Position numbers and translations under genes: made by a program. The notes below the pieces were generated by a model. The model was not told where the DNA came from. It did not search any database and saw only the letters and a list, made by a program, of their open reading frames with translations. Shown here one piece after another: positions 2,658-52,589 of a DNA stretch of 64,000 bases. The stretch's first letter is position 1. The number at the start of each line of letters is the position of its first letter. Source of the DNA: Blastocatellia bacterium (GTDB lineage Bacteria; Acidobacteriota; Blastocatellia; RBC074); the NCBI GenBank assembly GCA_035429885.1, contig DAOMFR010000019.1, positions 67 through 64,066 of the forward strand, in the 5' to 3' direction.

Positions 2658-4034
<1,377 letters not shown>

Positions 4035-4060
4035 AGGTCCTTTTGTCGAGCCTTCCTTTG

Positions 4061-4110
4061 GCAAAGAGCGTTGTTCATCACAAACAACGCTCTTTGCTCG
4101 TTTCTTCTTT
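4061..4110 (+). terminator. Rho-independent terminator after the M20 gene
   Basis: Perfect 15-bp inverted repeat GCAAAGAGCGTTGTT (4061-4075) / AACAACGCTCTTTGC (4083-4097) with a 7-nt loop, followed by T-rich TCGTTTCTTCTTTT. It lies between convergent genes. Confidence 0.75.
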
Positions 4111-4118
4111 TACTCCCG

Positions 4119-7100
4119 CTACATTTCAATTGGTCGCGAAACGCGAACGATACGCGCTTTAGCATCTTCCGGCGTGGTCCCGGGCAATTCCAACGGAAAC
4201 AGGTGATCCCACGGTTCCGACGTCAGTGAAGGGGAGATGTAGCTGAGTTCTTGTGCCTTGCTTGCTGTCTGCGATAGCGCAACGTTGATCGCAACTTCGG
4301 GCAATGCGTTCAGTGTCGTTGTTCCAAACTGAACCCAGTCAGTGGCAGACCGATGTTGTGCGGACACTTCCCAACTGTTTCCGGATTTCGTCAACACTAG
4401 GCGCACTGCGTATGGCGCGCTCACCTGCGCGCTGGGAATCGTTGTCTCTTGCACGACAGTTCCTCCGCTATTTTTCAGTTGCAAGGTCACGGAACCGTTT
4501 GCGTTATGCAACGCCGCAATGCTGACCAGTTTCGCACCGTTTGCAGATTGGTTCAGCGAAACACTGTAGCCGCCACTCGTCGTGAAGTTGGCTTTGATGG
4601 AGTTCAAGGTCACCGCCCATTGTCGGCCTCCATCCAGTTTTGCGCCAGAGTAATAATTGGCCTCACTCCGCAAATTGCCAAGCGCCTCCACGCGGTATTG
4701 CACTTCGATAATCCGTCCGCGTAGTTTCCAATCGTTGCCAATGCGGGTTTGCTCGTCCAACGGTTGGCAAATGCCCTGCGCGCCCAGCTTGTACAATCCT
4801 ACATACCGTTCCTGGTCACGGCGCCCGCGCATATCCCGAATCACCTGCGTCAGCACTAACCACCGCGAAAATTGATTAAACCCGGCAAGCGGAGGATCCG
4901 CCGGAAGCGTGGCCGGAACGCCATTGGTCAGTATTTCGACAAAGTTTGGATTGGAAGCGCTGCGACGCAATCTCAAGCTGTTGTAATCAAAATTCTGTCC
5001 GAATTCCGAAAAATCCGGCAGTAACTGCACCCAGTATGGATCGGTCGGTTTGCTTTCAAGAGCCGCGGGATTGCCATTGACGATCAAATTGCGCTTGAAA
5101 ACGAGCTTGGCGAAACTCCATTTATCTTCCAGATTCTTGGGCAATTCTGGAAACGAAAGCAGGCACGACGAAGCGACAAACAGCGGCGCGTCCGCGTCTG
5201 TATCGAAGGTGTGGCCAAGAGGCTGACTCACATTCATCTTGACCTTGCCGCCCGTCCAGGCATCGCCGGTCAGAATCGGATCAGGCCCGAATTCGGGAAG
5301 TTTTGCGCCTCCGGTGGGACTGTCCGCCTCTTGCATTTCAGCAACCAGCGTTTCCGCCAACCCGCCAACTTCGTACCAACTTTCGTTCAACACCACCAAC
5401 AGGCCCGGCAACCGAGCTTTGTTTGCCTCGGTTGTGCTGGCGGCTTCCGTCAACGGGACAACGAATTTTACCTGCGGCTTCGGCACTTCTTCTTGCCAGC
5501 GGCAATTGACCAGATACCGTTTCCAATTGTCGCGCGGATTTTGTGGATCAGTGGTTCCGGGCGAGGTCGCATTCCGGCTGGAATCGACAAACTCAGGAGC
5601 ATTTTTTTGCAGAATTTCCAGCAACCCCGAATACCGTGTGTTGGCGCGGACCGCAAAACGGTAATACAGCGCGCGACGATCCTGGGTTCGGTCGTCTTCA
5701 AACAGCAAAGGACTGTTGTCTAGCGTGCTCAGGCTGGCGCTCGTCAGCATGTAATCATCGTCGCCACGATCGCCGAATCCTTCCGCATCCCACAGAAACG
5801 CATTTGTTGCGGGGGAGTCGGTGTTAAGCGGCAATTTGTTGATTTCGGGTTGTTTATCATTGGTGCGTGCCGGAAATTCTCTTAAAGGACGCCCCTGCCA
5901 GCGCCAAAGCTGACGCCGTAACTCCACGGTTGCCACGTAATCAAACTTGTTGGCCGAACCAGCCGCGCCGCGATCCAGGTGGACAGTCAGCCGTCCGCCG
6001 ACCGCCACAGGACGGATGGCATTCCAAACTTCTTCAGGCGTAGGCAAATCGGTGGTCGCACCTTCCAGCAGCATCCGCAACGGCGAAAAAAGGTAGTAGG
6101 TATTTTCGAATTTCTGCCACGCGCCTTTGGTTGGCGGCGGCAGCTTATGAAACCGGCGCAGATTGTCATCGTCAAACCATTGCGCTTTCACCGGAACGTA
6201 AATGCGCAATTCCGCGACTTCGCCTTTGCCGATGGTCACCACTAACTTGCTGCCCGTCGCTGTGATTTCACTGACCTCGCCGTGCTTGCACAACACGGTT
6301 GTCGGCAGCGATTGCGCCAATCCTATGCCACCAGTCGCTTGCGGTGGCGGAATATCCACTTTCACAGTTTTCGCAACGGCTGCCGTTGGGCGCATCATCA
6401 CCAACTCGGCAACAAAAAAGTTTTCCGCCGCCGGATCGTCCAACGAAATGTCATCGCGATTGTCATCTGATGCCCGGCTGGGGTCTTTGGGCGCTTTGCG
6501 ATGGTAATCCGCCCAAACCTGCTTGCGTTTTTCTTCCGTAGGTTTGTCTGGCCCGGTTTCGGCGTCCTGATCTTTCGCCAGCCAACGGTTCCAGGTGGCC
6601 AGATCGGTCGCCGGTTTTCGCAATCCAAACGAAAATTCGGTTGGATTTGTTGTTTTGAGACTCGGCAGCAGTAGCAAGGGCAGATTCTGCGCTCCGGCGT
6701 TGACCACAGGGTCAGCACCTTTGAAGGTCATATCTTCGCTGGGGTCAGGCAGTGGAATGCCGCTGATGCTGGCGGGATTGAGCTTCAGTTCTCCCGCCAA
6801 TGGAAACACCTGGTCGGGAATCCTGGGCAATTGAATTCGTAATTTCCCAATTTGCCCAATTTCTCCGGCAACGCTGAATCGCGGTTTGCCCACGCGCACG
6901 CGGCGCAGGTATTTCACGCGACGAACCGGCGAAGACACGGCCGACGAAAAGTCCGGCTGGAAAGTTTCAGTCCAGTCTCGCAGTTTGGCGGGATGGCCGT
7001 CGCTGAGTTCTTTCGGCAACGCGCCGCTGTTGCCGATGACAAATGCCGCCAGTTCATACGTCTGGCCGAATTTCAGCGGTGGCAACTTCGCCCAGTTGGT

Positions 7101-9761
7101 ATTTTTGTTTGCCGGTGTGTATTCGATTCTGCCGGCAATGTCGTCGCCCAACTGATTTTCCAGACTGACCCCGCCGGACAATTTCGCCGCCGGGCTTTTG
7201 GCAATCAGCGGGTTGTCGTTGTAAGTAAGCAGCGCCTGCCGCAAATCGTTTTGATACGTCATGCGATACGGAGCCAAGGCTTTCGGGAACACAAGTTTCA
7301 ATCGTTCGTCCAGATCAGAAGTCGCTGTTTCGGCGCGCAGTTCCGCCATGTTCAAACAGCGCCACGGAGCCTGCCCCGTCGTCTGGCTTTGCCGCATCAA
7401 CAAGCCAATCCCGGCAATGCGCCGCAAAAAGTCCTGTGCGTCATCGTCGTTCCCTTCGGCGAATTTGGCCAAACGATCTACCTGAATTGTCACGCCCTGG
7501 GAAATTTCCGTCGGCGAGCTATCGCCTTCTTCGGTTGGATTGTCCAGCATCGGCAGCAGCAACGGTGCAAATCCCTCAGCAAACGCATCCAGACTGGTGT
7601 TCATCCAGGTTTCAATTGTTGTTTTCACTGGCGGCACCGGCACCGCCCCAGATGGCAGCGGCAGGTAATCAGCGTATTCCGCAATGCCGCTGATTCGCTT
7701 GCTGAAATAATCTTTGAGTTTCTGTTTCAGGTTGTCCGTCAACTGTTTGAACTCGTTCCCAGCGGAATGCTTGATGTTGATCAAATCGCTCCAAATACGG
7801 CCGATGTTTCCTGACGCCAGTCGCTGGCGAAGCTGGATCGCAGGCAGAATGCTGTCTTTAAGCGAAGTCGAAAATCGGCTGTAGAACGTTTGCGCCTTGT
7901 TGAAACTCCATCTATCCCAGTCGCTGATGGCAGCAGCAATTTTGTCCGCGGGCGCAACCAACACCGAAGGCTGCGTGAAGCTCAACGGGCCGACGCCAAC
8001 ATTCAGATCAACCACGATGGCAGCGGCATCAAGTTTGGATGTTGTCGCCACCTGCACGTCACTTGCGCCAATTGGCTGCCAAACATTGGCGCCTGTGCCG
8101 AATTGCGCTGTGACAAACCATGACTTTTCAGCTTGCCGCGCGATTTTCAGGCGCAAATGATGATCGGAAGAAATAGGAAATTCGGCCTGTGCCTTTTCAA
8201 TCTCGCTGGCATCAAGCAAGCGAATTTTCAGAGTGTCCGCATTGCGGGAAACTTCAAGCGCGATCTGGCTGGCCGGACTGAGTTTTGGATCCGTCACGCG
8301 GAAGAAGTATTTATCTCCTGAAACCAGTCTAGCGGAATTCAGGTTGGCCAGGGTCAACACCCATGCTCGCCCGTCATTCAAGCCGAGCAATCCGGTGTCG
8401 CCTTTGCCCGGACGAAGGCTTTGGAAGTAACTGGCTTGGGCCGAAGTGATGGTAGTTTTTGTCACGGAGCCGGTTTTGTTCGCAGCCAGATTCCATTGCG
8501 TCAACAAAAAATTTCGCAGGTTGTTTTCATCGGCCAGGGCGCTTTGAATCGCCTCCAATTCCCCCAACTCATCATCCAACCGGTCGCGTCGCCGAAACTC
8601 GGCAGGCTGGCGGATTGCGGCGGTGGCTTTGACTGCCGGGATGCTTTCCACCAGCTTTCGCCAGTCTTCATATGTTTGAGTTCGGTTGTAAAACTCCAGC
8701 GCTCCGCGCATTGAAAGCCGAAACGATTCCATCAAGCCATTGCTTTCCAATCCGACATCACGACAACTGGACAACAGATAACCGGCCACGTCCGCGCCAT
8801 CTGCGCCAGGCTGCACGCCGGTTCCGGCCAGATCACGTGTCGTCGCAACTACAGACTGGCGGAAAAACCTCAACACGGACATGTAAGCCTGATCGTCGAA
8901 ATTGGCCGGATTGCTGATCGCGCCGATATTTTTGCGAAATGCGTCAATTTGCCGCTGCGCCAGGTCGAAAATACCGGCAATCTTGCTTTCCAGCCGCACA
9001 GTCCAATCAGAGCCAAACCATTGCTGTTGCCCGGATTCAAAACTGTTCTTGATCCAGTAACTGCCGAAATCAATGTAGCTGGTAGCAGAGGGATCTGGCG
9101 TCAAAACGACTTTCCACGGCACAACGTACGCCTGCACGCTGTGCGTGCCCGGTTCATAACCCCAAATGTTGATGTCGGTGACCCCGGATCGGGAAATTGT
9201 GCTGCTGGGGCCGGTGGCTTTCGGAACGATGTCGCCCAGAGTTTCGCCTTTGAATTCCGGAACCGCCAAAATGGAATCGCCAGCGGTCAGCAGCGCCGCC
9301 GGCAATTTGAAACATAGCGACAGATTCAATTGCTGGGGCGCAGGTGCAGGCAATGTGGAAACATATCCCAGCAAGTTGCGGAAATAACGGCGGCTTTCCT
9401 GTTCTTCCTCAACGCCCACTGTCGGACGCCAGACAAAGGCTTCGCTGCCGTCCGCAGGATTTGCCCAGATGTCCTTGGCTTCATCCAGAATGGCGTTTTT
9501 GATTGGCGCGCCATCAAACTCACCGTCGTTGACGGGATAACTGACAACATTGGCCAGTTCCAGCGTGGCAGAGTTCTTTCGCCAAATGTGAATGCGTTCC
9601 ACATTTCCCCACAACCAGGGCATTAACAAGCTCAAGGCCTCGGCCTGCGTTCCAGCCAGTTGATCGAACGATGCCGACAGATTCAACCCGAAATATGCCT
9701 GATCCGTTTCATACGCCGGCCATAGCCGCTCCAGATGACAAATGATCGCTACGTTAGCCAT
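4119..9761 (-). CDS. Giant hypothetical protein, 1880 aa, no recognised domain
   Basis: Uninterrupted 5.6-kb ORF. SD-like AAGGAAGG sits about 6-8 nt upstream of the ATG at 9761. The gene starts 36 nt after the stop of the upstream 2179-aa ORF. By eye there is no signal peptide, TM segment, Walker A, HExxH or adhesin-type tandem repeat. Confidence 0.85.
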   Translation of the reverse strand: MANVAIICHLERLWPAYETDQAYFGLNLSASFDQLAGTQAEALSLLMPWLWGNVERIHIWRKNSATLELANVVSYPVNDGEFDGAPIKNAILDEAKDIWANPADGSEAFVWRPTVGVEEEQESRRYFRNLLGYVSTLPAPAPQQLNLSLCFKLPAALLTAGDSILAVPEFKGETLGDIVPKATGPSSTISRSGVTDINIWGYEPGTHSVQAYVVPWKVVLTPDPSATSYIDFGSYWIKNSFESGQQQWFGSDWTVRLESKIAGIFDLAQRQIDAFRKNIGAISNPANFDDQAYMSVLRFFRQSVVATTRDLAGTGVQPGADGADVAGYLLSSCRDVGLESNGLMESFRLSMRGALEFYNRTQTYEDWRKLVESIPAVKATAAIRQPAEFRRRDRLDDELGELEAIQSALADENNLRNFLLTQWNLAANKTGSVTKTTITSAQASYFQSLRPGKGDTGLLGLNDGRAWVLTLANLNSARLVSGDKYFFRVTDPKLSPASQIALEVSRNADTLKIRLLDASEIEKAQAEFPISSDHHLRLKIARQAEKSWFVTAQFGTGANVWQPIGASDVQVATTSKLDAAAIVVDLNVGVGPLSFTQPSVLVAPADKIAAAISDWDRWSFNKAQTFYSRFSTSLKDSILPAIQLRQRLASGNIGRIWSDLINIKHSAGNEFKQLTDNLKQKLKDYFSKRISGIAEYADYLPLPSGAVPVPPVKTTIETWMNTSLDAFAEGFAPLLLPMLDNPTEEGDSSPTEISQGVTIQVDRLAKFAEGNDDDAQDFLRRIAGIGLLMRQSQTTGQAPWRCLNMAELRAETATSDLDERLKLVFPKALAPYRMTYQNDLRQALLTYNDNPLIAKSPAAKLSGGVSLENQLGDDIAGRIEYTPANKNTNWAKLPPLKFGQTYELAAFVIGNSGALPKELSDGHPAKLRDWTETFQPDFSSAVSSPVRRVKYLRRVRVGKPRFSVAGEIGQIGKLRIQLPRIPDQVFPLAGELKLNPASISGIPLPDPSEDMTFKGADPVVNAGAQNLPLLLLPSLKTTNPTEFSFGLRKPATDLATWNRWLAKDQDAETGPDKPTEEKRKQVWADYHRKAPKDPSRASDDNRDDISLDDPAAENFFVAELVMMRPTAAVAKTVKVDIPPPQATGGIGLAQSLPTTVLCKHGEVSEITATGSKLVVTIGKGEVAELRIYVPVKAQWFDDDNLRRFHKLPPPTKGAWQKFENTYYLFSPLRMLLEGATTDLPTPEEVWNAIRPVAVGGRLTVHLDRGAAGSANKFDYVATVELRRQLWRWQGRPLREFPARTNDKQPEINKLPLNTDSPATNAFLWDAEGFGDRGDDDYMLTSASLSTLDNSPLLFEDDRTQDRRALYYRFAVRANTRYSGLLEILQKNAPEFVDSSRNATSPGTTDPQNPRDNWKRYLVNCRWQEEVPKPQVKFVVPLTEAASTTEANKARLPGLLVVLNESWYEVGGLAETLVAEMQEADSPTGGAKLPEFGPDPILTGDAWTGGKVKMNVSQPLGHTFDTDADAPLFVASSCLLSFPELPKNLEDKWSFAKLVFKRNLIVNGNPAALESKPTDPYWVQLLPDFSEFGQNFDYNSLRLRRSASNPNFVEILTNGVPATLPADPPLAGFNQFSRWLVLTQVIRDMRGRRDQERYVGLYKLGAQGICQPLDEQTRIGNDWKLRGRIIEVQYRVEALGNLRSEANYYSGAKLDGGRQWAVTLNSIKANFTTSGGYSVSLNQSANGAKLVSIAALHNANGSVTLQLKNSGGTVVQETTIPSAQVSAPYAVRLVLTKSGNSWEVSAQHRSATDWVQFGTTTLNALPEVAINVALSQTASKAQELSYISPSLTSEPWDHLFPLELPGTTPEDAKARIVRVSRPIEM

Positions 9762-9797
9762 TTGTGTCCTTCCTTTCTGCTGAGAGTTGATGTTTCT

Positions 9798-12700
9798 CTA
9801 TTCGAACATTGCCAAGTATTCAGCCGCAGCCAGATCAAATTCATCTCCGGCAGCCGCCAATTCCAACGCAAAGGAACTGGCGATTGCCGCCTGGGAACCT
9901 GAGCCTGAGCCTTTCTTGAACGTGTAGGTGACTGTTTTGCTGAATTTGAACGTGAAGCACCAGCAAATCTTGATGCGCACTTTCAACGTGCCGCGCCCGA
10001 CTAGCGATCCGTCGCTGCTGTATTGAGCTTCGAGCAACAGCGAAATCGAAACCGAGACAATGCTGAGCACTTCGACTTCGCCTTTCAGCAAAAGCATCAG
10101 CGTGATGGCAAACGCCGAGCCGCCGCCTGTGTCAATGTGAAAATCGGCGTAGATGCCGAAGGTGATCGAAACTGAGCCTTTGATTGGCCCCAGCGCAATT
10201 GCCAAAGACGCGCTGGCGGTAATGCCGATGGTGATGTCACCCAGCAAACGATTATTCAACGGGTAATAGGTCAGGCGCGTATCGAACCAACCGCCACCGC
10301 CCAGAATGAAAATCGTCAGGGTGAACGGGTCTTCTTTCTTGCCGAATGAAAGCGCGACGCCAAGCGCGAATTCGATGCCGGTCGAAACCGGGCGCAGCAA
10401 CAAGCGGAATCCAGCGCCCATGACCAAACCGCTGATGCCAAACGCGCCAAGCTGCACGGGCGGCAGCGGCAGGTCAATCACGGTTTCAACACCAGCCGGT
10501 TTTCCATCAATGATGATCAACCGAATCGGCGGCAAATCGTCGCCACTTGAAGGCAGGAATTTCTTCAACAGATCGGTCAGGAATTGCAGCGCGCCTGCCA
10601 TTTCGATCTTGTCGGTTGAAATGTCGAAGCGAATCTTGCCCTGGTCATTGAACGTCAGCGTCGTTTCGCGGAATGTGACCACGGACGTGCCCAGGATAAT
10701 CAGTTCCCAGTCGCCTTTGATCTGGCCCTGGACTTTCAGCCGCGGGGCGCTTCCCAATTCGGCGGTAATCATCGCTTCGGAGGTAAAGGTGGCTTTGGCC
10801 AGCTTCAACTCAACGGGACCGAAGGAAAAGATCGTTGCCTTGTCTGTCAGCGGAACGTTAATCGTCGCTTTCACCCATGCGCGTCGCGCTTGCGTGTCAA
10901 CGCCGTGGGTGACTTTGACATTTTCGCCGTTGCCGATGCCCGGCAGTTTGGGCAGGAGCGGAAACTTTAATCCCGAAAACAGTTTTTCAAGCTTCAACCC
11001 CGCAAAGTCCGGAAACAGATTGGAGAAGTCGAAATTTTCCAGCGCGTCTGGCACAACGCGATCAAGCAGGTTCGCGACCGGGAATCGCAACCCGAATCCT
11101 TTCAGATCATCTCCCAGCCGGTTGAACAATGCCGTCACTGGCGTCAAGTCTACGTGGCGCTTTAGTTCGTCAAAGTAATACGCCAGCCGCAACCGGTTGA
11201 AATCCAGCATCGGAACGCGCGGCGCATCGCCGAATGCGCGCAACAACCGCAGGGTCGTGTCGCCGATTTGATGAAGCGTTTCGTCCGCCAAACCGGCGAA
11301 TTCGCCCAACGCCTGATTGACCCGGTCAGCAAACGGAGCCAGCCGGAAGCGTATGTCATCAAACACACGCTCTATATCGCCGCGTAATTCGGCAAACGGC
11401 TTGCCAATGCTGGCAGTCAGTTGTGCTTTGAGCTTTTCAAGAAAATGGTCAGCAACATTGCCGCCGCCAAGCAGATTGTTCAGCACGTTGCCGAACTCGC
11501 TGGCTTCATCCAGCAATTTGGCGACCAGCACATTGCAGGTGATTTCGCGGACCTTGGCTTTCGCATCCACAATAGCCTGCCTGAAATCCGATTCCGCCTG
11601 GTTCACCACATCGCTCACGGCTTGACGCAATGCCGCTGGCGTTGCCTGCGCCTGATTGACGGCTGCAACCAGCTTTGCTTGTATCCCTTTTATAACCTGG
11701 CGAGGCTTGTTGACTTCGGCTTGCGCCTGCGACAGCGCAGCTTGAATTTCCGTGCGAAGATTCTTCAGGTCGTTTTCGAGCTGTACGAACGCGGTGGAGA
11801 GATTGCTTCTGAACGCTTCCAGTTCCGTCTTAACATTGGTCGCGCCTTGTTGCAGTTTTTTGTCAATTTCGCCCAGTTGAACGTCAATTTTCTGGCCGAG
11901 CGAAGCAATGTTGGAGCGGACTTTTTCGATCAACCCTGCCAGCTTGGTTTCTGTCCCGCTGCGAGCGGCGCTTTCCAATTTTCGCAGCAAGGCTTGCAGC
12001 CTGCGGCGCAGCTCTTCGATTTCCTGACGGGCGCGCGCCGAACCTTCTGTTGTCAGCTTGTCAGCAATGTTGATGACGGCATTAATTTCGCGTTCGGCCT
12101 GCGTTTTGAAATCGAGCGCAGCCTGATAGCCGGTTTCGGCCTGTCGCATCAATTCTTCCAGGCCGGTATTGACGATCGTGAAAAGGTCTTCGATACGGCG
12201 GCCATATTCATTGATGGCGCCTATGACATTGTCTTTTAGATTGCCGGTTGCCTGGCTCAGCCTGTCAATGGATTTATGTAAATCCGCTTCGATGTCGGCG
12301 AACAATTTGATGACGCGATCCTGGGCAAAATCAATTGCCGCATCGGTGGCGTTGTTGAGTACACCGCACAGCACATTCTGGCCGCGAAACAGGTCGGAGA
12401 GTTTTTTGTCGCCGACGGTTTGGTTGATCAGCGCGTTGAAATTTCCCTTCAAGCCATCTGACGAATTGTGTTTGGCAATCAGTTCATCAATCGTCTTCGT
12501 TAGTTCGGTGACCGCCGCCTGTGTCACGTTGCCGTCTTTGGGCAGTTTCGACAGGATAGTTTGCAGAATTTCTTCGGTTTGTTCGGTGATGCGTTTGAGT
12601 TTCGCCACGCCTTCACGCGCCGCAATGACTCCATTACGCTGCGCGCCTTCAGTAAATTCCTCGACAGTGCGCAGGCGAGCGCGCACCATCGTCACGTTCC

Positions 12701-15700
12701 GCAGTGCAACATTCAGCGCTTCTGCCGTGCGTTCGGCCATCAGATTGATCTGCTGCGAGGCCGGAGCGACCGCGAAGGTGAATTGTTCGTAGCCCGGTTC
12801 GATGGTTTGTGCGTCCGGCAAAGGGCGATCCAGGCTGGCGGGATCATAAGCGGGAATGTTCGGTTTGACTGGCACGGGCTGGTCCGGGAAGTCAACGTTT
12901 CGCACCGCAGGCCATTTATCCGTGTTGGCTCGATCTTTGGGTTCGACGCCGTGTTCACCCTGGGTATCGTCAACTGTGCGCGTAAAGAACACGAGTTTTT
13001 CCGGCTCTTGCAGTTCGACATTGATCACGCCGCCGCCTTCGCCCTCTGCCGCAACTTCCAGGAGGATTTGCGGCTTCGGATAAACGTTCGGCTTTTCCTG
13101 GCTGGCCTGAACATTCCACAACGGAACCTGCCAGCCTTCATTCGGAATATCGCTTCCCCAATCGCTATCCACGTTGATGACACGGCTTTTGAATTCATCG
13201 CCCGTCACGAACCCGCGCGAAATGGCCTCGGCACCGAATTCGGGATATTTGCGAACGGGCTGTAAGAGTTCGACGAACTCGCGCACTTTTCGCAGCAGGG
13301 GGCGTCCCAGATGATGTTCCTGCTTGTCTTTGAACTGCTCAGTAGGCGCAACAGTGCGTTCGTAAATGATGACGTGCTTGGCCAGATTCCAGAACGCCCC
13401 GATGCGGCCAATCCGTTCGATGCTATAAAAGTATGTCCGCCCCATCGCCACGTTGGCATAAATCGTGGTCAGTCCGCCGTTAAACACCGCTTTCTGATTT
13501 CCCCATCCGCCCAGCGAGGAAAAGAACGGATTGGCCAGTTGGCTGCCGTCAAAAGATTTCGGCTCACTGAGCAACTGGTCGTAAATGTTGGCGGATTCGA
13601 ATCCCCAAGTGACGCCGCCTACCAACCCATCCGGCGGCGAGGACGCTCGGCGAGGATCGTTTTCTGGAACTAATTTGGTCGAAATTGGATACCGCAGCTT
13701 CGCCGTGTTTCTCAACTCATAGTTCACGCCTTCCGTGACAATCAGATTCGCGGGTTGATTGGCATCGTAAGCTTCCAGAACAGACAGGCGGGACAAATAG
13801 CGACTGTAAAGCTCCGCCCACGCGCGGCGAAATTCTTTGTAAACCTCCAGCTGCCGGCTGGAAGCGGAAGTTTTCCATTTCAAATCCCGGCTCAATCGTC
13901 CAGGAATCTGGCCGAGTTTTGAATCGAGTTCCGCAAGCCGCAAAAACGGATAAGTGACTTGGCAGGCTAAGCCGTAAAACAGTTCAAAGCGCGCGTTCAC
14001 AATGCTGGCGCCGGGCGCGCGTTGCCCGGGAAAGCCCAGAATTCGCCGTAAATTCCAGGGCGCTTCGGCAAATCGCTGCTTGAAAAACGATGGCTTCAGG
14101 TTGAGTTTGGCCAAGGGCGAGAATCGGAAATCTATTGGCGCATTTTCCGGCACATCTTCGTGCTTGCCGGTCAGCTTCCATTTTTCCATCGCTTCGCCAA
14201 GGCCCTGTGGCGGCAGAAACAGGTTGAATCCTTCGCTGCTGCCGATCAGTTCCCAGCTTGCGCCTTCATCGGCAGTGGCAGACCAATTGCCGATTTCGCG
14301 TATACCTTCCTGCGCAGAACCGACAAACGGCGGAGCTTCGACCAGGGCAACCAAAAACGGCTGCGCATCCAGCGAGATCAGTCTTTGCTGGCCACGCAAT
14401 TGGCTGGAACCTGAACCATATTCCAGCAACCGCATGGAAAGTGTCTGAGATTGCTCCGCTTCGGTTCTCTCTTCGAAATCGAGCATAAATTGCGGCTTCC
14501 GGGTTTGATCCAAAGCCGATTGCTCTGCGGAGCTTTTCAACAATGCGTTGGCCAAGTGGGAAGGAAATGGAATCAACAATGGGCGGCGGCGGCGAAATTG
14601 CCGCTCCAAGCCAGCTTCAAATTCTTCCTCCGCCGTCAGCGTGACGGTGTCGCAAGAACCGAGCACATCGGCTGAAACAAATTCTTCGCCGGGCAAATCG
14701 TCTTGTCCGCCCGGCACCAGATCGAACAGCGCCAGACGGCCTTTGATGTTCACTGTCAACACTTCCGCAGAATACAAATCTCCCAAAGCGGCTTTGCGAA
14801 AACAGACCCGCAGCAGCGAATCCGCCGCAAGTTGCAAATCGGCAAGACGCGCTTGTTTGGCAGGACGTTCGGGAAACACCAAATCCAATGCTCCGACGCG
14901 CGAAATCTGTTCATCGGAATTTCCTGGCAAATGCTCGGTTTGGAACGAAAACGGGAGCGATTCTTTTTCGATAAGCAGCTCATCGGGCTTGCCGTTTTTG
15001 AATTGCGTGCTGACGACCCGGTACGTCAGCCGTAACGGTTCGCCAACTTGGGACAAAAATCCGGGCAAGATGGCTTTGGTGGCGAACTCACTCAGGCTGG
15101 GATAAAGAGAGCGCACCCTAAGTCCGATTCCTCCAGCTCGAAACTTATCACTGTGCAAATCGAACTTGTTATCATCAAAGACCAAATCGCGCGAACCGTC
15201 AGTCATTTTTGCCATCAACGTCCAGCGCGGCGCGGCCAGGGGCGGTTCCGGTGGAGTTCCCCCCGGCACATTTTCCCGCTCGGCCCTTGGCGGATCTTGC
15301 AGCAAATCTTCTCCGGCGGTGAACATCCAAACGGGCATGAAGGAAACCGGGCGACCATCCTGAATCATGTGCAATGCGTGCAGATAGGGCCGGGCGATGG
15401 AATTGTTCCAAAGCTGAAGCACGCTGGTGTGCGGAATGCCTTCAAGCTGCACGACCCATTGGCCGAGCGGAAGTTGATCGTACTGTGTTGTATTGCGATT
15501 GCGGGGTTGGCGCTGGACAATGGTCAGCGGAGCCAGATTCTCATCGTCCAGGTTAAGAGCCTCTGTCTGAGCCTTGCAGATATTCAGCCGCGCATCTTCC
15601 TGCCATTCATTCTCGCCACTGCATCGGCTGACGCGAATATCCGGCGAGGGCGAAAGCACTTTGTGATCAACGCCCGGATGAAGAGAGAGTCTGCGGCTGA

Positions 15701-16337
15701 ATACCAGATGAATCGTAGCAGTTGTGCTCGGCAATCCGGATTCTTCCAGGCAAGCAAAGGTCACCTGGATTTTTGACCGAGGATCATTAGGACTGTCGTT
15801 TGGTTGTTCCGGCGGACCGTCTGATGCGAGTCCCAATCGTCTGGCCAGATCGGGAAGCTCACCAACGCGCCCAATGACCAACGCCTTGTTCCTAAGAGAT
15901 TCAAGCGGCTCGTTTTCGATATCCTCTAGCGCGCCTCTCACTTCCGGGAAAGGGGCCAACCCCGGCGGCCCGATCATTTCCAAAGATTCAACGACAATCT
16001 GCCCGTTGGTCCTGATCTTCAATTGGCAATCGAATTGAAGAACCGGCTTTGCCCCGGTTTTGCGCAGCAAACAACGGATTAGGCAATTGATCCGAATCTC
16101 TTTGCGATTGCTGCTGATTCTCACCTGTTCGCTGCCGTCTTCGTTTTGGGGCAGCACATCAAGAATCAGCAAGGGCTGACCTGACGTATTGACGTCAAAA
16201 AGCACAATGCGGTCAAACCCGACCAAGGGCGCATTTGTCGGACTTTCTTGCGCCCGCTTGTTCACAAGATTCAATTCCAGTTTGAGTTCCAAAGCTCCGG
16301 AGAGTGACTGGCGGTAAGCGCGTAGGATCGTTGGCAT
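9798..16337 (-). CDS. Giant hypothetical protein, 2179 aa, with a central ~500-aa amphipathic helical region and a C-terminal Gly/hydrophobic beta-rich module
   Basis: Uninterrupted 6.5-kb ORF with an AGGAG SD (16346-16350) upstream of the ATG at 16337. Residues ~1197-1700 are nearly free of Pro and Gly and are rich in charged residues, Gln and Ala. Residues ~1962-2140 show alternating hydrophobic strands with GGGG/GGG turns. No catalytic or secretion motif was recognised. Confidence 0.85.
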   Translation of the reverse strand: MPTILRAYRQSLSGALELKLELNLVNKRAQESPTNAPLVGFDRIVLFDVNTSGQPLLILDVLPQNEDGSEQVRISSNRKEIRINCLIRCLLRKTGAKPVLQFDCQLKIRTNGQIVVESLEMIGPPGLAPFPEVRGALEDIENEPLESLRNKALVIGRVGELPDLARRLGLASDGPPEQPNDSPNDPRSKIQVTFACLEESGLPSTTATIHLVFSRRLSLHPGVDHKVLSPSPDIRVSRCSGENEWQEDARLNICKAQTEALNLDDENLAPLTIVQRQPRNRNTTQYDQLPLGQWVVQLEGIPHTSVLQLWNNSIARPYLHALHMIQDGRPVSFMPVWMFTAGEDLLQDPPRAERENVPGGTPPEPPLAAPRWTLMAKMTDGSRDLVFDDNKFDLHSDKFRAGGIGLRVRSLYPSLSEFATKAILPGFLSQVGEPLRLTYRVVSTQFKNGKPDELLIEKESLPFSFQTEHLPGNSDEQISRVGALDLVFPERPAKQARLADLQLAADSLLRVCFRKAALGDLYSAEVLTVNIKGRLALFDLVPGGQDDLPGEEFVSADVLGSCDTVTLTAEEEFEAGLERQFRRRRPLLIPFPSHLANALLKSSAEQSALDQTRKPQFMLDFEERTEAEQSQTLSMRLLEYGSGSSQLRGQQRLISLDAQPFLVALVEAPPFVGSAQEGIREIGNWSATADEGASWELIGSSEGFNLFLPPQGLGEAMEKWKLTGKHEDVPENAPIDFRFSPLAKLNLKPSFFKQRFAEAPWNLRRILGFPGQRAPGASIVNARFELFYGLACQVTYPFLRLAELDSKLGQIPGRLSRDLKWKTSASSRQLEVYKEFRRAWAELYSRYLSRLSVLEAYDANQPANLIVTEGVNYELRNTAKLRYPISTKLVPENDPRRASSPPDGLVGGVTWGFESANIYDQLLSEPKSFDGSQLANPFFSSLGGWGNQKAVFNGGLTTIYANVAMGRTYFYSIERIGRIGAFWNLAKHVIIYERTVAPTEQFKDKQEHHLGRPLLRKVREFVELLQPVRKYPEFGAEAISRGFVTGDEFKSRVINVDSDWGSDIPNEGWQVPLWNVQASQEKPNVYPKPQILLEVAAEGEGGGVINVELQEPEKLVFFTRTVDDTQGEHGVEPKDRANTDKWPAVRNVDFPDQPVPVKPNIPAYDPASLDRPLPDAQTIEPGYEQFTFAVAPASQQINLMAERTAEALNVALRNVTMVRARLRTVEEFTEGAQRNGVIAAREGVAKLKRITEQTEEILQTILSKLPKDGNVTQAAVTELTKTIDELIAKHNSSDGLKGNFNALINQTVGDKKLSDLFRGQNVLCGVLNNATDAAIDFAQDRVIKLFADIEADLHKSIDRLSQATGNLKDNVIGAINEYGRRIEDLFTIVNTGLEELMRQAETGYQAALDFKTQAEREINAVINIADKLTTEGSARARQEIEELRRRLQALLRKLESAARSGTETKLAGLIEKVRSNIASLGQKIDVQLGEIDKKLQQGATNVKTELEAFRSNLSTAFVQLENDLKNLRTEIQAALSQAQAEVNKPRQVIKGIQAKLVAAVNQAQATPAALRQAVSDVVNQAESDFRQAIVDAKAKVREITCNVLVAKLLDEASEFGNVLNNLLGGGNVADHFLEKLKAQLTASIGKPFAELRGDIERVFDDIRFRLAPFADRVNQALGEFAGLADETLHQIGDTTLRLLRAFGDAPRVPMLDFNRLRLAYYFDELKRHVDLTPVTALFNRLGDDLKGFGLRFPVANLLDRVVPDALENFDFSNLFPDFAGLKLEKLFSGLKFPLLPKLPGIGNGENVKVTHGVDTQARRAWVKATINVPLTDKATIFSFGPVELKLAKATFTSEAMITAELGSAPRLKVQGQIKGDWELIILGTSVVTFRETTLTFNDQGKIRFDISTDKIEMAGALQFLTDLLKKFLPSSGDDLPPIRLIIIDGKPAGVETVIDLPLPPVQLGAFGISGLVMGAGFRLLLRPVSTGIEFALGVALSFGKKEDPFTLTIFILGGGGWFDTRLTYYPLNNRLLGDITIGITASASLAIALGPIKGSVSITFGIYADFHIDTGGGSAFAITLMLLLKGEVEVLSIVSVSISLLLEAQYSSDGSLVGRGTLKVRIKICWCFTFKFSKTVTYTFKKGSGSGSQAAIASSFALELAAAGDEFDLAAAEYLAMFE

Positions 16338-16588: not shown

Positions 16589-16618
16589 ACTCTACGCCCG
16601 GCAACTTCCGATTGTCAA
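16589..16618 (-). promoter_or_regulatory. Candidate sigma70-type promoter for the giant-ORF operon
   Basis: On the minus strand: TTGACA (16618-16613), an 18-nt spacer, then TAGAGT (16594-16589). This would give a ~250-nt 5' leader. Confidence 0.3.
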
Positions 16619-16734: not shown

Positions 16735-17211
16735 CTAAGCCTGAGACTTCGTCAAGTCGGCGAGCGTCGCGGAAGCGGCTCGTTGCAAATCGGCGGGGGC
16801 CAGAATCATTTGGATTCCGCGCTGACCGGCGCTGACGCTCAGGCGTTCGTGGTTGGGCGCGGTTTGATCCAGGTAAAACGGATACTTCTTTTTCGTGCCC
16901 AGCGGAGACACGCCTCCGCGAATGTACCCGGTCAGGGCTTGGATTTCTTTGACGGCGACCAGTTCGACCTTTTTGTTGCCGGTGGCGGCCGCGAATTTTT
17001 TCAGGTCGAGTTCGGCGTTGCCGGGAATGCAGGCCATGATCACTCCGGTTTTGTCGCCGCGAGCGACCAGCGTTTTGAACGTCGCTTCCGGAGGCATGTT
17101 CACTTTGCGAGCGACGGTAATGGCGTCGAGTTCGTCTTCGTTCACTTCGTATTCGCGCAGTTCGTAGGCGATCTTCAGTTGATCCAGCATTCGTGCGGCA
17201 ATGGTTTTCAT
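16735..17211 (-). CDS. ybaK: Cys-tRNA(Pro)/Cys-tRNA(Cys) deacylase, YbaK/EbsC family
   Basis: 158 aa. Full-length resemblance to YbaK/EbsC ([10 protein letters not shown]...YELREY..., FKTLV..., [11 protein letters not shown]). Confidence 0.85.
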
Positions 17212-17330: not shown

Positions 17331-17807
17331 ATGAAGCTGTCTCAATTCCAACACAATCAGAAACCAGAGTTGGGGAAACCGGCAAATCCGGCGGTCAAAG
17401 ATTTAGGGCCGCTGGAACGATCGGTCATGGAATTCGTTTGGCAACAGTACGAAACCAACAAGGACGCCAATGTGAAAGTCAGTGTGCGCGATGTGGTTTT
17501 GGCGTTCGACGGACGACTGGCCTACACCACGCTGATGACGACGTTGGATCGGTTGTATAAAAAAGGGTTGTTGCAACGACAGAAAGATGGCCGCGCGTTT
17601 GTGTATACGCCGAGTTTGTCTGCGCAGGAATTGGAACGTAGCTTTGCGCGCAATGTGATTGATGCGCTGTTGGGACGTGGGGAACACGGCGTTGAACCGG
17701 TGTTGGCTTGCATTGTGGACGCTGTTAGCGAACACGATCGCGAATTGCTGGATAATCTGGATCGGTTGATTCAGCAAAAACGGCAAACGCTTGAGGAACA
17801 GGAGTGA
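17331..17807 (+). CDS. BlaI/MecI/CopY family transcriptional repressor
   Basis: Winged-helix N-terminus typical of the family (LERSVMEFVW...VRDVVLAF...AYTTLMTTLDRLYKKGLLQRQKDGRAFVYTP). Confidence 0.85.
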   Translation: MKLSQFQHNQKPELGKPANPAVKDLGPLERSVMEFVWQQYETNKDANVKVSVRDVVLAFDGRLAYTTLMTTLDRLYKKGLLQRQKDGRAFVYTPSLSAQELERSFARNVIDALLGRGEHGVEPVLACIVDAVSEHDRELLDNLDRLIQQKRQTLEEQE

Positions 17808-18832
17808 TGACAATGTACGAGTGGTTGGGAATTTGTTTGGCATTGTCCGCTCTGTTGACGCTGAACGCTGCAATCTCGGCGCTGACGGCAATGGTTTGGC
17901 GATTGGTGCAGGCGCGCGCGAACCATTGGTCGGCCAAGACAAAAGCTCAATGGATTTTTGTCTTGCGTGTGTTTCCGGGAATTGCTTCGTTGATCAGTGT
18001 CGCGGTGTTTTTGATTCCTGCCTACATTGCGCACGAACCTCGCCATCAATCGGAACATGTCACGATCAAGCTGGCAGCGCTGGCGGCTTTTTCTGCTGCC
18101 GGAGTGGTCCTGGCAGGCTGGCGAGGATTGGCCGCCTGGCGCGTGACGCGCAACCTGATTCGCCAATGGCTTGCCAATTCTGAATCCATTTCACTGAACC
18201 CAGCCACAATTCAGGTTCCCGCGTACCGGTTGCGGCATGCATTCCCGGTCATTGCGGTTGTCGGGACGTTTCGCCCGAAACTGTTCATTGCGGATTTTCT
18301 GTTTGATTCCTTAACACCGAAAGAATTGGCTGCGGCGATCGCTCACGAATGTGGGCATCTGGCGGCGCGCGACAATTTGAAGCGCACCTTATTAAGAATT
18401 TGCCGCGACGTGTTGACGATTGTTCCTTGCGGGCGTGCGTTGGATCGGTACTGGGCAGAAGCTTCCGAAGAGGCCGCTGATGAATTTGCCGCTCAGCACA
18501 GCGGCCGGACAGCGTTGGAACTGGCTTCGGCGCTCGTAAAAATTGCGCGTTTGGTTCCGCAAGGGGGAAGTCCGATTCTTTCCGCCAAAACCGCCGGAGC
18601 GTTGTTGATTGGCCAGGATTTGACTGGACTCGCCCGCAGAGTCACGCGGTTGACGGAACTAGCCTCCGCGACGAAAACGCATCATTCCATGGAGCTAGAT
18701 GCTCCTACAGCTGTTCCGGCATCGTTATGGTTATTGGCAGGCACGTTGCTGATGGCAATCGCCATGTTGGCCAATTCTTCCCTCGCAACCGTTCATAAAT
18801 GGATCGAATTCACGGTTTCGATTCTGCAATAG
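17804..18832 (+). CDS. BlaR1-like M56 family membrane metallopeptidase lacking an extracellular sensor domain
   Basis: ATGA overlap with the blaI-like gene. N-terminal TM helices and an HExxH zinc site (AIAHECGHLAARDN). At 342 aa it has no penicillin-binding-type sensor domain. There is also a C-terminal TM segment. Confidence 0.8.
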   Translation: MMTMYEWLGICLALSALLTLNAAISALTAMVWRLVQARANHWSAKTKAQWIFVLRVFPGIASLISVAVFLIPAYIAHEPRHQSEHVTIKLAALAAFSAAGVVLAGWRGLAAWRVTRNLIRQWLANSESISLNPATIQVPAYRLRHAFPVIAVVGTFRPKLFIADFLFDSLTPKELAAAIAHECGHLAARDNLKRTLLRICRDVLTIVPCGRALDRYWAEASEEAADEFAAQHSGRTALELASALVKIARLVPQGGSPILSAKTAGALLIGQDLTGLARRVTRLTELASATKTHHSMELDAPTAVPASLWLLAGTLLMAIAMLANSSLATVHKWIEFTVSILQ

Positions 18833-35682: not shown

Positions 35683-38600
35683 TTATCGAATCACATTCGC
35701 GTGTGTGCCAACGATGCTGCGAGCGATGGGGAAATCGCCGAGTTCGGCTTGAAGCGGCTGTTTATTTCGGTGGCGAGGCGCGAATTGCACAACAATGACT
35801 TCGGCTTCGCCGGGGCGCAGGCTGTGTCCGCCGGGCAAGGCCAGCATGACTCCCAAGCGGCCTTGCGCTGTTTCGTTCTGGTTGAGAATGAGTGTTGCCT
35901 GCCGAGCCTGGCGTCCGGTTCTTGCGGAAACAAAACGCCATTTGTTCGCATCAAAATTCAAACTAAAACTCAGCGCGTTTTCGGTTCCGTGAGCGTTCAG
36001 CCGGATGGAGATCGCGCCAGGAAGGGGTTTTACCGTCAACGGTTCATTTGTTTCGACGGTTTGCTGACGGCTGGCTTTCAATCCGCAATTTGCAACCCCC
36101 AATCCGCAATCGCCAGAAAGCCCTGCGACAGCAACGCTCGGTCCGCCCGCCACAGTCGCGGCTTCCAGTCCTGCAACGTAACGTCCGGTTTGCACCCAAT
36201 CAGCCAGTGTCAGGCGTCCATCGCCAAGGGTGTCGCGGGGAGCGCAGTCGGCGCGCTGAAATTCACTGCTATTGGCTGGGGAATCCAACCCGGCGACGAA
36301 TCGCCCTACTTGCACCCAGTCGGTGATTGTCACTGAGCCGTTGTTGTTTCCAAAAACACGGGGCGCAACATCGGCTTCATAACCTTGCCCAAGTCGCACA
36401 CTGCCGGAAACAAATTGTGCCGTGATTGGGGAACCGCTACCGGAAACCGCGCGAGGAATTGGCAAATCGCCAAAGTTGATTGTGGCCGTCGTGGCCGAAG
36501 CCGACGGAACAATATTGAATGTGATAACGGCGATTTGCCTTAAACCGGCCTCGTACTTCTTTCCGGAAGGTTGCGTGATCGTGAGTCCAAAAACACCTTG
36601 AGCAACACGTGTGGCGTCAGCGAAAAAATCTGCTCCAATGGAATCCACGCCGATGGAAGTTCGCGGGTCGGCAAGCAGTTTCGGATCAAAACTCAGGCTG
36701 AAATTGATGGCGGTCTCGTCGCCTTTGGAATCCAGCGTGATGGGCACGTTGACCGTTTGTCCGATAGAACCGGCGGAACTGACGACACTGATTGCGCGCG
36801 CGGCGACATTGACGGTCATGGAAGCGCTGGCTCCACCGATGTTGGCGGGTAAAGTCGCCGTAACTGTCGCAGGGCCGCCGACCGCCACACCGCTCAAGTG
36901 GAATGTCGCAGCTGCTGTTCCAGCTGGAATCACGACACTCGATGGAATCGTCAGCACAGATGTATTGGTGGACGATAGCGATACTGTCACGCTATTGGAT
37001 TGCGGGTAACTAAGCGTCACCGTTACGGGGCTTAGTGCTCCGACAGTTGCTGTCAAAGGAGACGGCGACAGCGAAATTCCCGGGAAGGACGTGAAGTTGA
37101 GTGTTTGTGCGTCCACGCAACCGGGTTTGCTCAGAATAATTGGAGCCGTGCGCGCTCCGGCAGGAACTGTGGTCGTGATGGACGTGTTGCTGTTGATCGT
37201 GAAGGAAGCAGGCACGTCGCCGAATTTGACGGCGGTCACCCCCGTGAAGCCGGAGCCTGTGATGGTGACTTGATTGCCCACGGAGCCGCTGCTTGCGCTT
37301 AGGCTGGTGACATTCAGGCAACTGGTCTGGCAGCAGGTGAACCCTGTCAGTTGCAAGGAAAACGCGCGCACGCTGCCGCTGTCTCCCGTAAAGGCGTCCA
37401 CTACAGTGAGTGTCCAGGTGCCGTTCGGGTTTTCTCCGTCGAAGGTGGACAGCGCGTTCGATGGTTTTAGAGTGCCGGTGTAAGGAGGCCCTTGCGGAGG
37501 CGGGCCGTTGGAGGCAATCGAGCCGATAGAAATTGCATTTGCTGCGTCATCATCCAGCAACATTTGGCAGAAGTTTTTGCCGCTGTTGCCGCTGCCGCCG
37601 GGGCGACTGATGATCGTCACGGTTGTTCCTGCGGGCGATGTCAGCCGAAACACCAAATCCCCAACCCAGGTGTGATCCACGCCGACGCCTGTGGCTCCGG
37701 GGCTGGACGAACACTGTGTGCCGTCAATGCGGAAGTTCAAGTCGGCGATGGTGCTGGGAAATCCGCTGACGACGATCGGTAAACTGACGCCGCGAGAATC
37801 TCCGTCGGGGATTTTTGTCGCTTCGCCCGCATAACTGAAGGTTTGCGTTGTCGTGCCGATTGCGCCGAGCGTGAAGTTGAATGTCACGATGCCCAAGTCC
37901 TGATCGCCATCTTTCAAACTCAGATTGATTGGCAAGTTTCCGCCGCAGGCTCCGCTGGCTGTGAATGTGAATTGACGCGCGACGGCTGCTGAACCGGGAG
38001 CCATTGCGCCGTAGCTTCTGGTTTGGTCGGCGGTGATGACGTTGCTGGAAGAGAGCAGTGTCGCCGTCAAATTCTGTGTGGTAGTGGAACCGTTGTTGCC
38101 CAGCAAAAGACTGACCGTTACGGTTTCGCCCGGATCAATGACTTTGTTCGCAGGCAAGCAGCTTTCGGTCACCAGCGAAGACGTGGCGCCAATAATCAGT
38201 TTGGCTGGACGCACCAGCCGCGCGCGAATGCCATAATTGCCAAACGATCCCAGTGAATCAATCAACTCGAAGGTTAAGCCGTCCAGCGAACGATAGGAAC
38301 GCGTTTTGGATTTCGTCGTGTCCAGCGCAAAAGGAAATACGTTTTCTGTCTGGGTCAGTTTTAGGCCCACGACGAAATCTCCGGACGTCACCGTGAGTGG
38401 AGAAATGTTGACCACATTGAACGCGCCGACCTGTTGCACTTGTGCCGCTGTCGTCTGAAACACGAGCCCGTCAATATTCGAATCGCCGTCAGCGTTTGAC
38501 GCGACAATCACCGAATACTGATCGCCTACGCGCACGCTGGTGTTATCCGGGAAGTAAATCGAAACGGCGTTGATCGTGGCCGGGTAAAACGCCGGAGTCA

Positions 38601-52532: not shown

Positions 52533-52589
52533 ATCCCGCAAGCGATGATTCTGCGCTCTCTAAGCGGCACTCAATAGTTGAGGAACGAG

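Follow-up and report, generated by a model that had tools for sequence, protein, structure and literature searches.

Among described systems, the Tc toxins are close counterparts of the gene pair analysed here. They consist of consecutive giant coupled open reading frames (ORFs) without signal peptides, they are accessory and horizontally mobile, and one of their subunits pairs long helices with a membrane-entering element, next to variable beta-sandwich modules of the receptor-binding type; in some species a lysis-type release is needed. Phage tail and ejection proteins (lambda J, T5 Pb2, T7 gp15 and gp16) are also large and free of Sec export, combining coiled-coil segments with peptidoglycan-binding or lytic segments and with membrane-entering ones. 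Our pair, genes A and B, lies in a 64,000-nucleotide stretch of DNA (called the window below) from contig DAOMFR010000019.1 of a Blastocatellia bacterium. It shares the traits just listed for Tc toxins other than lysis-type release, its membrane-entering and receptor-binding elements being predicted ones, and it constitutes an autonomous, tightly coupled, strongly selected and horizontally distributed two-gene module, made up as follows:

9798..16337, minus strand: gene A, 2179 amino acids, ATG start, TAG stop (GenBank HQR32242.1, 'hypothetical protein', from a Blastocatellia metagenome-assembled genome, or MAG)
9762..9797, minus strand: A-B intercistronic spacer, 36 nucleotides, holding the Shine-Dalgarno sequence of B, AAGGAAGG
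4119..9761, minus strand: gene B, 1880 amino acids, ATG start (GenBank HQR32241.1, 'hypothetical protein', Blastocatellia MAG)

A stands upstream of B on the same strand and both ORFs are uninterrupted. The Shine-Dalgarno sequence of A (AGGAG) precedes its ATG by 8 nucleotides and that of B by 6. The original prediction had reported two minus-strand ORFs of these lengths, with their own Shine-Dalgarno sequences and a 36-nucleotide gap, and we reproduced its coordinates exactly; its observation that the opposite-strand ORFs are short holds as well, since the longest over the A-B span has 320 codons. Two further signals frame the pair:

16589..16618, minus strand: sigma-70-like promoter candidate TTGACA-18-TAGAGT, about 250 nucleotides upstream of A, between ybaK and A
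4060..4098, strand-neutral: hairpin with a 16-bp stem, between the convergent stops of B and of an M20 peptidase gene

The hairpin is probably a bidirectional terminator. Taken together, the promoter-like site, the two Shine-Dalgarno sequences, the 36-nucleotide gap and the hairpin give a unit that reads promoter, A, B, terminator, and by these sequence signals A and B form a bicistronic operon. The promoter candidate is weak evidence, because it is a consensus match only and the region holds three promoter-type consensus sites where 5.3 are expected by chance. A regulatory RNA in the 5' leader of A was considered and rejected: the leader has no Rfam match and its folding z-score (-0.07) is nothing unusual. 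Directly downstream of B lies a 288-codon ORF with a TTG start (3198-4064, minus strand), overlapped from the opposite strand by the well-supported M20 gene; as a third gene of the module it is probably spurious, and it matches no downstream gene at other loci.

The coupling of the two genes is obligate. In all 33 loci with room for both, A is directly followed by B in the same order, without exception, which settles the matter of co-occurrence and order raised with the original prediction. ORF clustering across loci found A in 32 of 32 and, in every contig that extends beyond it, B as the next gene on that strand; four betaproteobacterial-type loci have a divergent form of B. The gap between the stop of A and the start of B measures 0-60 nucleotides at the other loci, typically about 7-15. 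The same clustering revealed no third gene common to the phyla, companions being lineage-restricted. It is because the coupled pairing is obligate while the flanks vary between phyla that we regard A-B as a self-contained module. The possibility that the pair arose by duplication was rejected, as A and B are unrelated by hhalign.

Both genes are under purifying selection. The ratio of nonsynonymous to synonymous substitution rates (dN/dS) between the window and two orthologous loci, L007 (about 97-98% amino-acid identity to the window) and L009 (67-74%), is 0.055 and 0.118 for A, and 0.101 and 0.133 for B. These values and the hundreds of homologues described below bear out the strong selection that had first been deduced from the uninterrupted reading frames. 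A Pirellulales MAG (L016, 8555-22295) and a Blastochloris MAG (L022) have broken copies in which A is truncated and B is in two pieces; these could be pseudogenes or assembly indels, one of the contigs having a coverage of 1.7x.

How widely is the module distributed? First homologue searches brought up 13 proteins related to A and 8 related to B, with A then B in every sufficiently long contig. Scanning GTDB with a single genome for each species produced 25 loci, whose hosts include Blastocatellales and other Acidobacteriota, Pirellulales, Rhodothermales, Gemmatimonadota, Limisphaerales and Verrucomicrobiales, the Alphaproteobacteria Sphingomonas citri, Sphingomonas sp. Leaf10, Rhizobium and Blastochloris, and, on the Burkholderiales side, Massilia niabensis, Nitrosospira multiformis, Comamonas and other Burkholderiales, as well as MAGs labelled Pseudomonas and Enterobacteriaceae and one labelled Spirochaetales. 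The 33 loci span Acidobacteriota, Planctomycetota, Rhodothermales, Gemmatimonadota, Alpha-, Beta- and Gammaproteobacteria, Verrucomicrobiota and the Spirochaetales-labelled MAG, so that the pair is present in at least seven phyla. The same arrangement occurs on rhizobial megaplasmids, in an Ensifer genomic island and on further metagenome contigs. A profile search gave 448 matches at E <= 1e-5; among the matches listed (at least 120) all belong to the A family, with members in Burkholderia pseudomallei, Bradyrhizobium, Rhizobium and Ensifer. With residues 700-1880 of B as the query, a full HMMER scan over 1.84 billion cluster representatives retrieved 585 clusters (defined at 50% identity) at E <= 1e-3, 279 of them at E <= 1e-30.

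The named hosts are all diderm, save two doubtfully labelled MAGs. Loci L007 (CAZMXG010000129.1) and L008 (CAZXHW010000124.1), whose A proteins are 98% and 87% identical to that of the window, are labelled 'uncultured Heliomicrobium sp.'; these labels look wrong, GenBank placing the identical proteins in Blastocatellia, and there may be similar errors in the binchicken labels 'Enterobacteriaceae' and 'Spirochaetales'.

Neither protein carries a predicted signal peptide or transmembrane helix, and neither N-terminus has a hydrophobic core. Windows of 19 residues with a mean Kyte-Doolittle hydropathy above 1.6 are confined to A 1963-2098, where beta-strands are predicted, and none occurs in B, which agrees with the absence of export signals asserted in the original prediction. 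Three other large ORFs of the window, at 35683-41412 (minus strand), 48316-52170 (plus) and 52578-57146 (plus), encode proteins of 1909, 1284 and 1522 amino acids with signal-peptide-like N-termini; they are unrelated to A and B save for one 61-residue match at chance level.

Conservation along A was read from an alignment of 19 diverse loci, and a structure was predicted with AlphaFold2 (AF2) for residues 600-1240 joined to 1690-2179, using a 51-sequence alignment (predicted local distance difference test score, pLDDT, 80.5; predicted template modelling score, pTM, 0.65). Four segments can be told apart:

14418..16337, minus strand: A residues 1-640, poorly conserved N-terminus of variable length, with only 2 invariant columns in the N-terminal alignment
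12843..14420, minus strand: A residues 640-1165, the most conserved block, a beta-rich core with 37 invariant residues
11268..12620, minus strand: A residues ~1240-1690, helical and apolipoprotein-like, varying in length among homologues, with many alignment gaps
9888..11270, minus strand: A residues 1690-2150, conserved C-terminal domain, pLDDT 70-85

In three larger homologues of A (P0054, P0091 and P0056), the N-terminus begins with a PG_binding_1 domain at residues 3-46. The invariant residues of the core include a PPQxxGEAMEK motif and a cluster of Arg, Glu and Asp, and its pLDDT is mostly above 90; the core has no PDB-sequence profile match at E <= 10 and no fold match by Foldseek. The helical region shows sub-threshold matches to the Pfam families Apolipoprotein and Baculo_PEP_C and to the tail of ZorA. 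In the AF2 model the C-terminal domain consists of a short helical part followed by a meander of about 17 antiparallel beta-strands, each up to 20 residues long, and it contains a GGGGW motif. Family-wide, these strands are amphipathic: in the final ones the hydrophobic face averages about +2.4 to +3.0 on the Kyte-Doolittle scale and the opposite, polar or small-residue face about -0.4 to -2.4. Long strands of this kind are confined to A ~1800-2140, that is about 350 of the 2179 residues. The C-terminal beta domain (A 1867-2137) is also found, at about 30% identity, at the C-terminus of P0013, a protein of 1277 amino acids encoded at L034 2122-5955; because P0013 is an otherwise unrelated coiled-coil protein, we consider the domain a transferable module.

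Foldseek comparisons of A with the PDB returned weak matches only, driven by the C-terminal domain: SlpA at the top (E = 1.9e-5, template modelling score, or TM-score, 0.08), followed by porins, LptD, ushers, SprA and the teneurin YD shell; over the whole set, TM-scores run from 0.05 to 0.30. Against BFVD, the matches were again weak and involved the host specificity protein J (probability 0.8), autotransporter beta domains and tail-fibre or tail-assembly proteins, with TM-scores of at most 0.16.

For B, residues 700-1880 were modelled from 58 sequences (pLDDT 80, pTM 0.63), and in the model beta-sandwich domains follow one another in a chain, along with a few helices. B comprises a core and two variable insertions, the first of which lies upstream of the modelled part:

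4842..7514, minus strand: B residues 750-1640, family-wide core, several beta-sandwich domains and a few helices
7932..8381, minus strand: B insert ~461-610, lineage-specific, 44-59% gaps in the bins of the 19-locus alignment
4275..4622, minus strand: B insert ~1714-1829, lineage-specific, all-beta, 88% gaps in the 19-locus alignment

The two inserts are weakly alike (23% identity, E = 4e-4). At the level of the whole array, Foldseek matches are weak and concern the macroglobulin (MG) domains of complement C3/C5 and cytokine-receptor ectodomains; at the level of single domains, the matches are galectin/ConA-like jelly-rolls (probability 1.0, TM-score to the target about 0.5, about 140 aligned columns), and the PilC lectin module and the CBM2 of a phage Dit protein are matched as well. 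Eight consecutive strands at model residues 1015-1130 fall within the ~1714-1829 insert, which in the model is probably a galectin/ConA-like jelly-roll. Trp, Gly, Pro and Arg make up most of the residues that are invariant in the B family, a composition more suggestive of structure than of catalysis.

Is any known family represented in A or B? B has no match in Pfam, NCBIfam, PADLOC or PHROGs, and A has in these collections only coiled-coil or apolipoprotein-type matches at residues ~1240-1700, all below curated cut-offs. Among the defence models of PADLOC-DB 2.0 these are coiled-coil matches to ZorA, LmuB and JetC (E >= 1e-5, A 1247-1690), with none in B; among PHROGs they are likewise coiled-coil only (E >= 0.007) and include a sub-threshold tape-measure match. 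A Pfam scan of 11 relatives of A and 16 long relatives of B added no family beyond one IPT/TIG domain in a single B homologue. Searches of all PDB sequences with phmmer and profile hmmsearch matched the helical region of A to helical bundles only and B to nothing, and the profile searches with the core, the C-terminus and the N-terminus of A found nothing; Foldseek, run against the PDB for both proteins and against BFVD for A, returned no whole-fold homologue. Pfam and NCBIfam detect no NTPase, nuclease or other common defence enzymology in either protein, and neither has tandem Ig, cadherin or RTX domains in Pfam. Literature searches by accession and keyword gave nothing relevant to A or B. 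As modelled, the two large and confidently predicted folds appear new; a domain-level search of the AlphaFold database might reveal distant relatives.

These searches sharpen the original prediction, which had found by eye no family, catalytic or secretion signature in the pair. The family part stands, Pfam, NCBIfam, PADLOC and PHROGs all agreeing with it, and so does the proposal of an undescribed system, now extended by the lack of any family, PDB-sequence or whole-fold match; confident homology to the families named at the time as fatal to it (TcA, AsmA/TamB, phage tail), or to TcB-RHS, appears neither in Pfam, NCBIfam and PHROGs nor in PDB profiles and Foldseek. The pair is not featureless: A possesses apolipoprotein-like helices and an amphipathic beta C-terminus, and B lectin-like inserts. 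As a correction to the original prediction, lectin/Ig-type modules are not wholly missing from B, its model matching galectin/ConA-like jelly-rolls rather than tandem adhesin repeats.

The immediate neighbours in the window are two housekeeping genes:

2658-4034, plus strand: M20 peptidase gene, flanking the B side
16735-17211, minus strand: ybaK, flanking the A side (match to PDB 2dxa, E = 8.6e-25)

GC content is 0.53-0.56 throughout the region, with no sign of foreign composition around A-B. Beyond ybaK, on the plus strand at 17331-18832, a BlaI/MecI-type repressor gene (Penicillinase_R, E = 1.7e-20) is followed by one for an M48/BlaR-like peptidase; the two probably form a signal-transducing regulator pair, and their transcription leads away from ybaK, A and B. 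Within Blastocatellia the pair lies in a syntenic setting, flanked by ybaK and, at the opposite end, by the M20 and an amidohydrolase gene, and a relative at about 70% identity has the same setting. Outside Blastocatellia the flanks differ, and the pair is often in islands bearing integrase, Tn7 or conjugation genes, or on megaplasmids; its neighbours in other phyla include integrases, resolvases, TniQ/TnsD, rve, relaxase/TraI, a TraG-type coupling protein and a PIN/Phd toxin-antitoxin pair. The original description of housekeeping flanks free of mobile elements is thus right for Blastocatellia and fails elsewhere, where islands and megaplasmids are frequent.

A census of Pfam families over 137 neighbour proteins gives a view of what accompanies the pair. 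Two themes, peptidoglycan enzymes and defence genes, seem to recur, without being statistically established. To the first belong a polysaccharide deacetylase directly upstream of A in L011 and in one other census neighbour, YkuD-like proteins near the pair in four alphaproteobacterial loci, weak NlpC/P60 or amidase matches in L004 along with a Gln_deamidase_2 toxin-type domain, a weak phage-lysozyme match in L005, and a PG-binding protein and a 'tail tip lysozyme' beside the pair on pRlX3. The alphaproteobacterial loci (L013, L020, L030 and L031, about 5.3-7.9 kb) have in common two additional, oppositely oriented upstream genes, one for a protein of about 550-620 amino acids without Pfam match and one for the YkuD-like (L,D-transpeptidase) protein of about 200 amino acids, whose match (E = 2.9e-4) is below the Pfam threshold. 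One of the 137 neighbours has a strong match to HH_signal (Hedgehog N-terminal signalling / LAS-peptidase, E = 7e-57). To the second theme belong a SIR2 gene upstream of the pair on the opposite strand in pRlX3 and single PADLOC matches among the 137 neighbours to ThsA, DrmC, mad3/mad8 (MADS), AriA/GajA, LmuA, Dsr1/2 and AbiLi. In L033 (13656-17673, minus strand), genes for an EAD5-trypsin and a 968-residue NACHT-like STAND NTPase stand directly downstream of an A-B pair whose A has PG_binding_1; by their predicted products these surroundings are a conflict-system neighbourhood. No exporter family recurs among the neighbours (ABC_tran is found in 1 of 137), and no capsid, terminase, portal or tail family is among the top-listed families of the census.

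We consider it possible, with a probability of roughly 35%, that A and B make up a Sec-independent, envelope-acting binary complex with Tc-toxin-like ('ABC-toxin-like') logic, which would serve in microbial conflict. A would be the membrane-active subunit, its amphipathic helical region and C-terminal beta-sheet binding to or inserting into a lipid bilayer; its N-terminus might anchor to peptidoglycan in some lineages, and its invariant beta-rich core could hold an oligomer together or carry an unrecognised activity. B would be a beta-sandwich array whose lectin-like or Ig-like, lineage-specific inserts bind glycans or surfaces and so recognise targets. A non-classical release, through lysis of the producer or with the help of adjacent peptidoglycan-active enzymes, would allow the complex to reach its target, and the complex would act between microbes. 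Here the physical association of A with B, membrane insertion, action outside the cell and the role in conflict are all what we infer. A wider proposal, which we hold to be rather unlikely, is that the pair is the founding example of an unrecognised class of giant two-component envelope-breaching machines that dispense with Sec export, a class with new folds that has spread horizontally over most diderm phyla and is functionally analogous but evolutionarily unrelated to Tc toxins or phage ejection proteins.

Several observations point to the envelope. A purely cytosolic A is unlikely because three homologues start with a peptidoglycan-binding domain, and an action on membranes is supported by the Foldseek neighbours of A, which are large membrane beta-barrels or shells only, by the sub-threshold resemblance of its central region to lipid-binding apolipoprotein helices and by the family-wide amphipathy of its C-terminal strands. 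The peptidoglycan-active, or peptidoglycan-enzyme-like, proteins encoded next to the pair in several unrelated lineages and the diderm nature of the named hosts argue in the same direction. For B, the lectin-like inserts of some lineages and the IPT/TIG domain of one homologue suggest recognition, and independence from Sec is supported by the other large ORFs of the window, which do have signal-peptide-like N-termini where A and B have none.

Other observations weigh against this interpretation. No release or secretion route is evident in the sequence. In the window, the pair occupies the syntenic chromosomal setting described above, and no lysis, peptidoglycan-hydrolase, cargo or immunity gene adjoins it. 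None of the neighbour families in the 137-protein census shows statistical enrichment, and several matches to peptidoglycan enzymes fall short of the Pfam thresholds. 'Barrel-like' describes the fold of A and not homology, because the TM-scores are very low (0.08-0.3). Finally, the defence genes near the pair fit a rival explanation equally well.

Kinship with Tc toxins themselves finds no support: at E <= 1, no VRP1, neuraminidase-like, TcA_TcB_BD, SpvB, TcdB_toxin_mid or RHS/YD match was obtained in Pfam for A, B, 11 family members of A and 16 of B; the PDB-sequence profile searches return no Tc chain although Tc structures are solved; and Foldseek returned neither TcA nor TcB, the teneurin YD shell being a weak match to the C-terminus of A (E = 2.2e-4, probability 0.09, TM-score 0.05). 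Tc toxins moreover have three genes rather than two, and no C-terminal hypervariable toxin domain is evident in A-B. Unlike repeat adhesins and type I secretion substrates, the pair has no tandem Ig, cadherin or RTX domains and no recurring exporter of the ATP-binding cassette (ABC) or membrane fusion protein (MFP) type nearby; as for the MG arrays of alpha-2-macroglobulin and complement, B has no Pfam match to them, the C3/C5 matches in Foldseek are weak (probability 0.5, TM-score 0.09-0.14), and no CxEQ thioester motif was found on reading its sequence.

The main rival, in our opinion unlikely, is an anti-phage defence of the abortive-infection type, in which the inserts of B would sense a phage component in the cell and the C-terminal domain of A would then enter the host inner membrane. 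Such a system would explain the absence of export signals, and a self-contained two-gene unit with a patchy distribution across phyla, often borne by islands with integrases, TniQ/TnsD, resolvases, relaxases and toxin-antitoxin genes, is also consistent with it, as are the defence-type neighbours: SIR2 on pRlX3, the EAD5-trypsin and STAND NTPase of L033, and the single PADLOC matches. This neighbour signal is modest, however, since several of the PADLOC matches probably come from the same few proteins, and the stable housekeeping context in Blastocatellia speaks against a defence role. Neither protein contains the NTPases, nucleases or other enzymes common in defence, and PADLOC models match the pair only as coiled-coil similarity to ZorA tails. 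That resemblance of the helical region to ZorA, together with the island context in some genomes, recalls Zorya, but the match is compositional only, and the MotA/ExbB transmembrane domain and the ZorB-D partners are missing. A peptidoglycan-binding N-terminus, lectin-like inserts and a TIG domain would also be unexpected in a cytosolic sensor. An improbable alternative is that A-B is a structural or lipid-handling part of the producer's own diderm envelope, with A spanning from peptidoglycan to outer membrane, as a tether of the OmpM/SlpA type or a bridge of the AsmA/TamB type, and B as a periplasmic or surface partner. The stable synteny beside housekeeping genes in Blastocatellia and the restriction to diderm hosts, with the reservation made above for two MAGs, would agree with this, and so would the module order of A, which is that of OmpM/SlpA (PDB 8ae1): a cell-wall-binding N-terminus (in three homologues of A), a helical stalk and a large C-terminal amphipathic beta domain, SlpA being the best PDB match in Foldseek. 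As to a closed C-terminal barrel in A, the AF2 model offers long amphipathic strands and weak barrel matches. Yet the TM-score to SlpA is as low as 0.08, PG_binding_1 occurs in those three homologues only, and A differs in having no SLH domain, about 1200 extra N-terminal residues that include its unique conserved core, and an obligate partner. With AsmA/TamB-like proteins, which are giant proteins of diderms, A shares long beta-strands with one strongly hydrophobic face, but its amphipathic sheet covers about 350 of 2179 residues, with no beta-taco along most of the protein; the N-terminal membrane anchor is absent, there is no Pfam match to AsmA, AsmA_2 or DUF490, and LptD is a weak Foldseek match. 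More generally, lacking a signal peptide, a lipobox or an N-terminal anchor, A and B have no known route to the periplasm, and their sporadic, island-borne distribution is typical of accessory rather than core envelope genes.

Very improbable, finally, is a domesticated or cargo-borne phage component, that is, tail-tip, tape-measure or ejection proteins that would cross a target envelope. Its clues are the weak BFVD matches to protein J and to tail-fibre or tail-assembly proteins, the sub-threshold tape-measure match in the coiled-coil region of A, the NCBI name 'phage tail protein' given to the Ensifer aridi homologue, the peptidoglycan-binding and lysozyme-like neighbours, and the presence of the pair on three IMG/VR contigs classed as viral. 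Against these, tblastn of the A core on the 50,697 phage genomes of INPHARED gave no match, and the A and B profiles drew a blank in two scans of IMG/VR; it took a third scan with more degenerate core patterns to recover the three contigs, out of 2.9 million. On these contigs, L036 (3300032896_000431), L037 (3300001918_000023) and L038 (2510917021_000004), the pair is near the contig end. Three flanking ORFs from L036 and L037 have no match in phage records, two of them having no PDB match either; the contigs could be prophage cargo, host flanks or misclassified. No capsid, terminase or tail gene was detected beside any locus, the PHROG similarity of A is of the coiled-coil kind, and all structural matches to phage proteins have TM-scores of at most 0.16. 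As far as such scans can tell, association of A-B with phages is essentially absent. Since the testable defining features failed for Tc toxins, AsmA/TamB, OmpM/SlpA, phage tail proteins, PADLOC defence systems, repeat adhesins and alpha-2-macroglobulins, we assign the pair to none of these groups.

Whatever its function, the module represents about 12 kb of coding sequence kept under purifying selection in each genome that carries it, and the obligate pair recurs in hundreds of lineages. Its cultured hosts include Sphingomonas, Massilia, Nitrosospira, Rhizobium, Ensifer, Bradyrhizobium and Burkholderia pseudomallei, and the existence of culturable hosts makes A-B directly testable. If A-B is a toxin or a translocator, it would provide a new scaffold for protein delivery or membrane breaching; were it a defence system, it would be new as well, and its architecture unprecedented.

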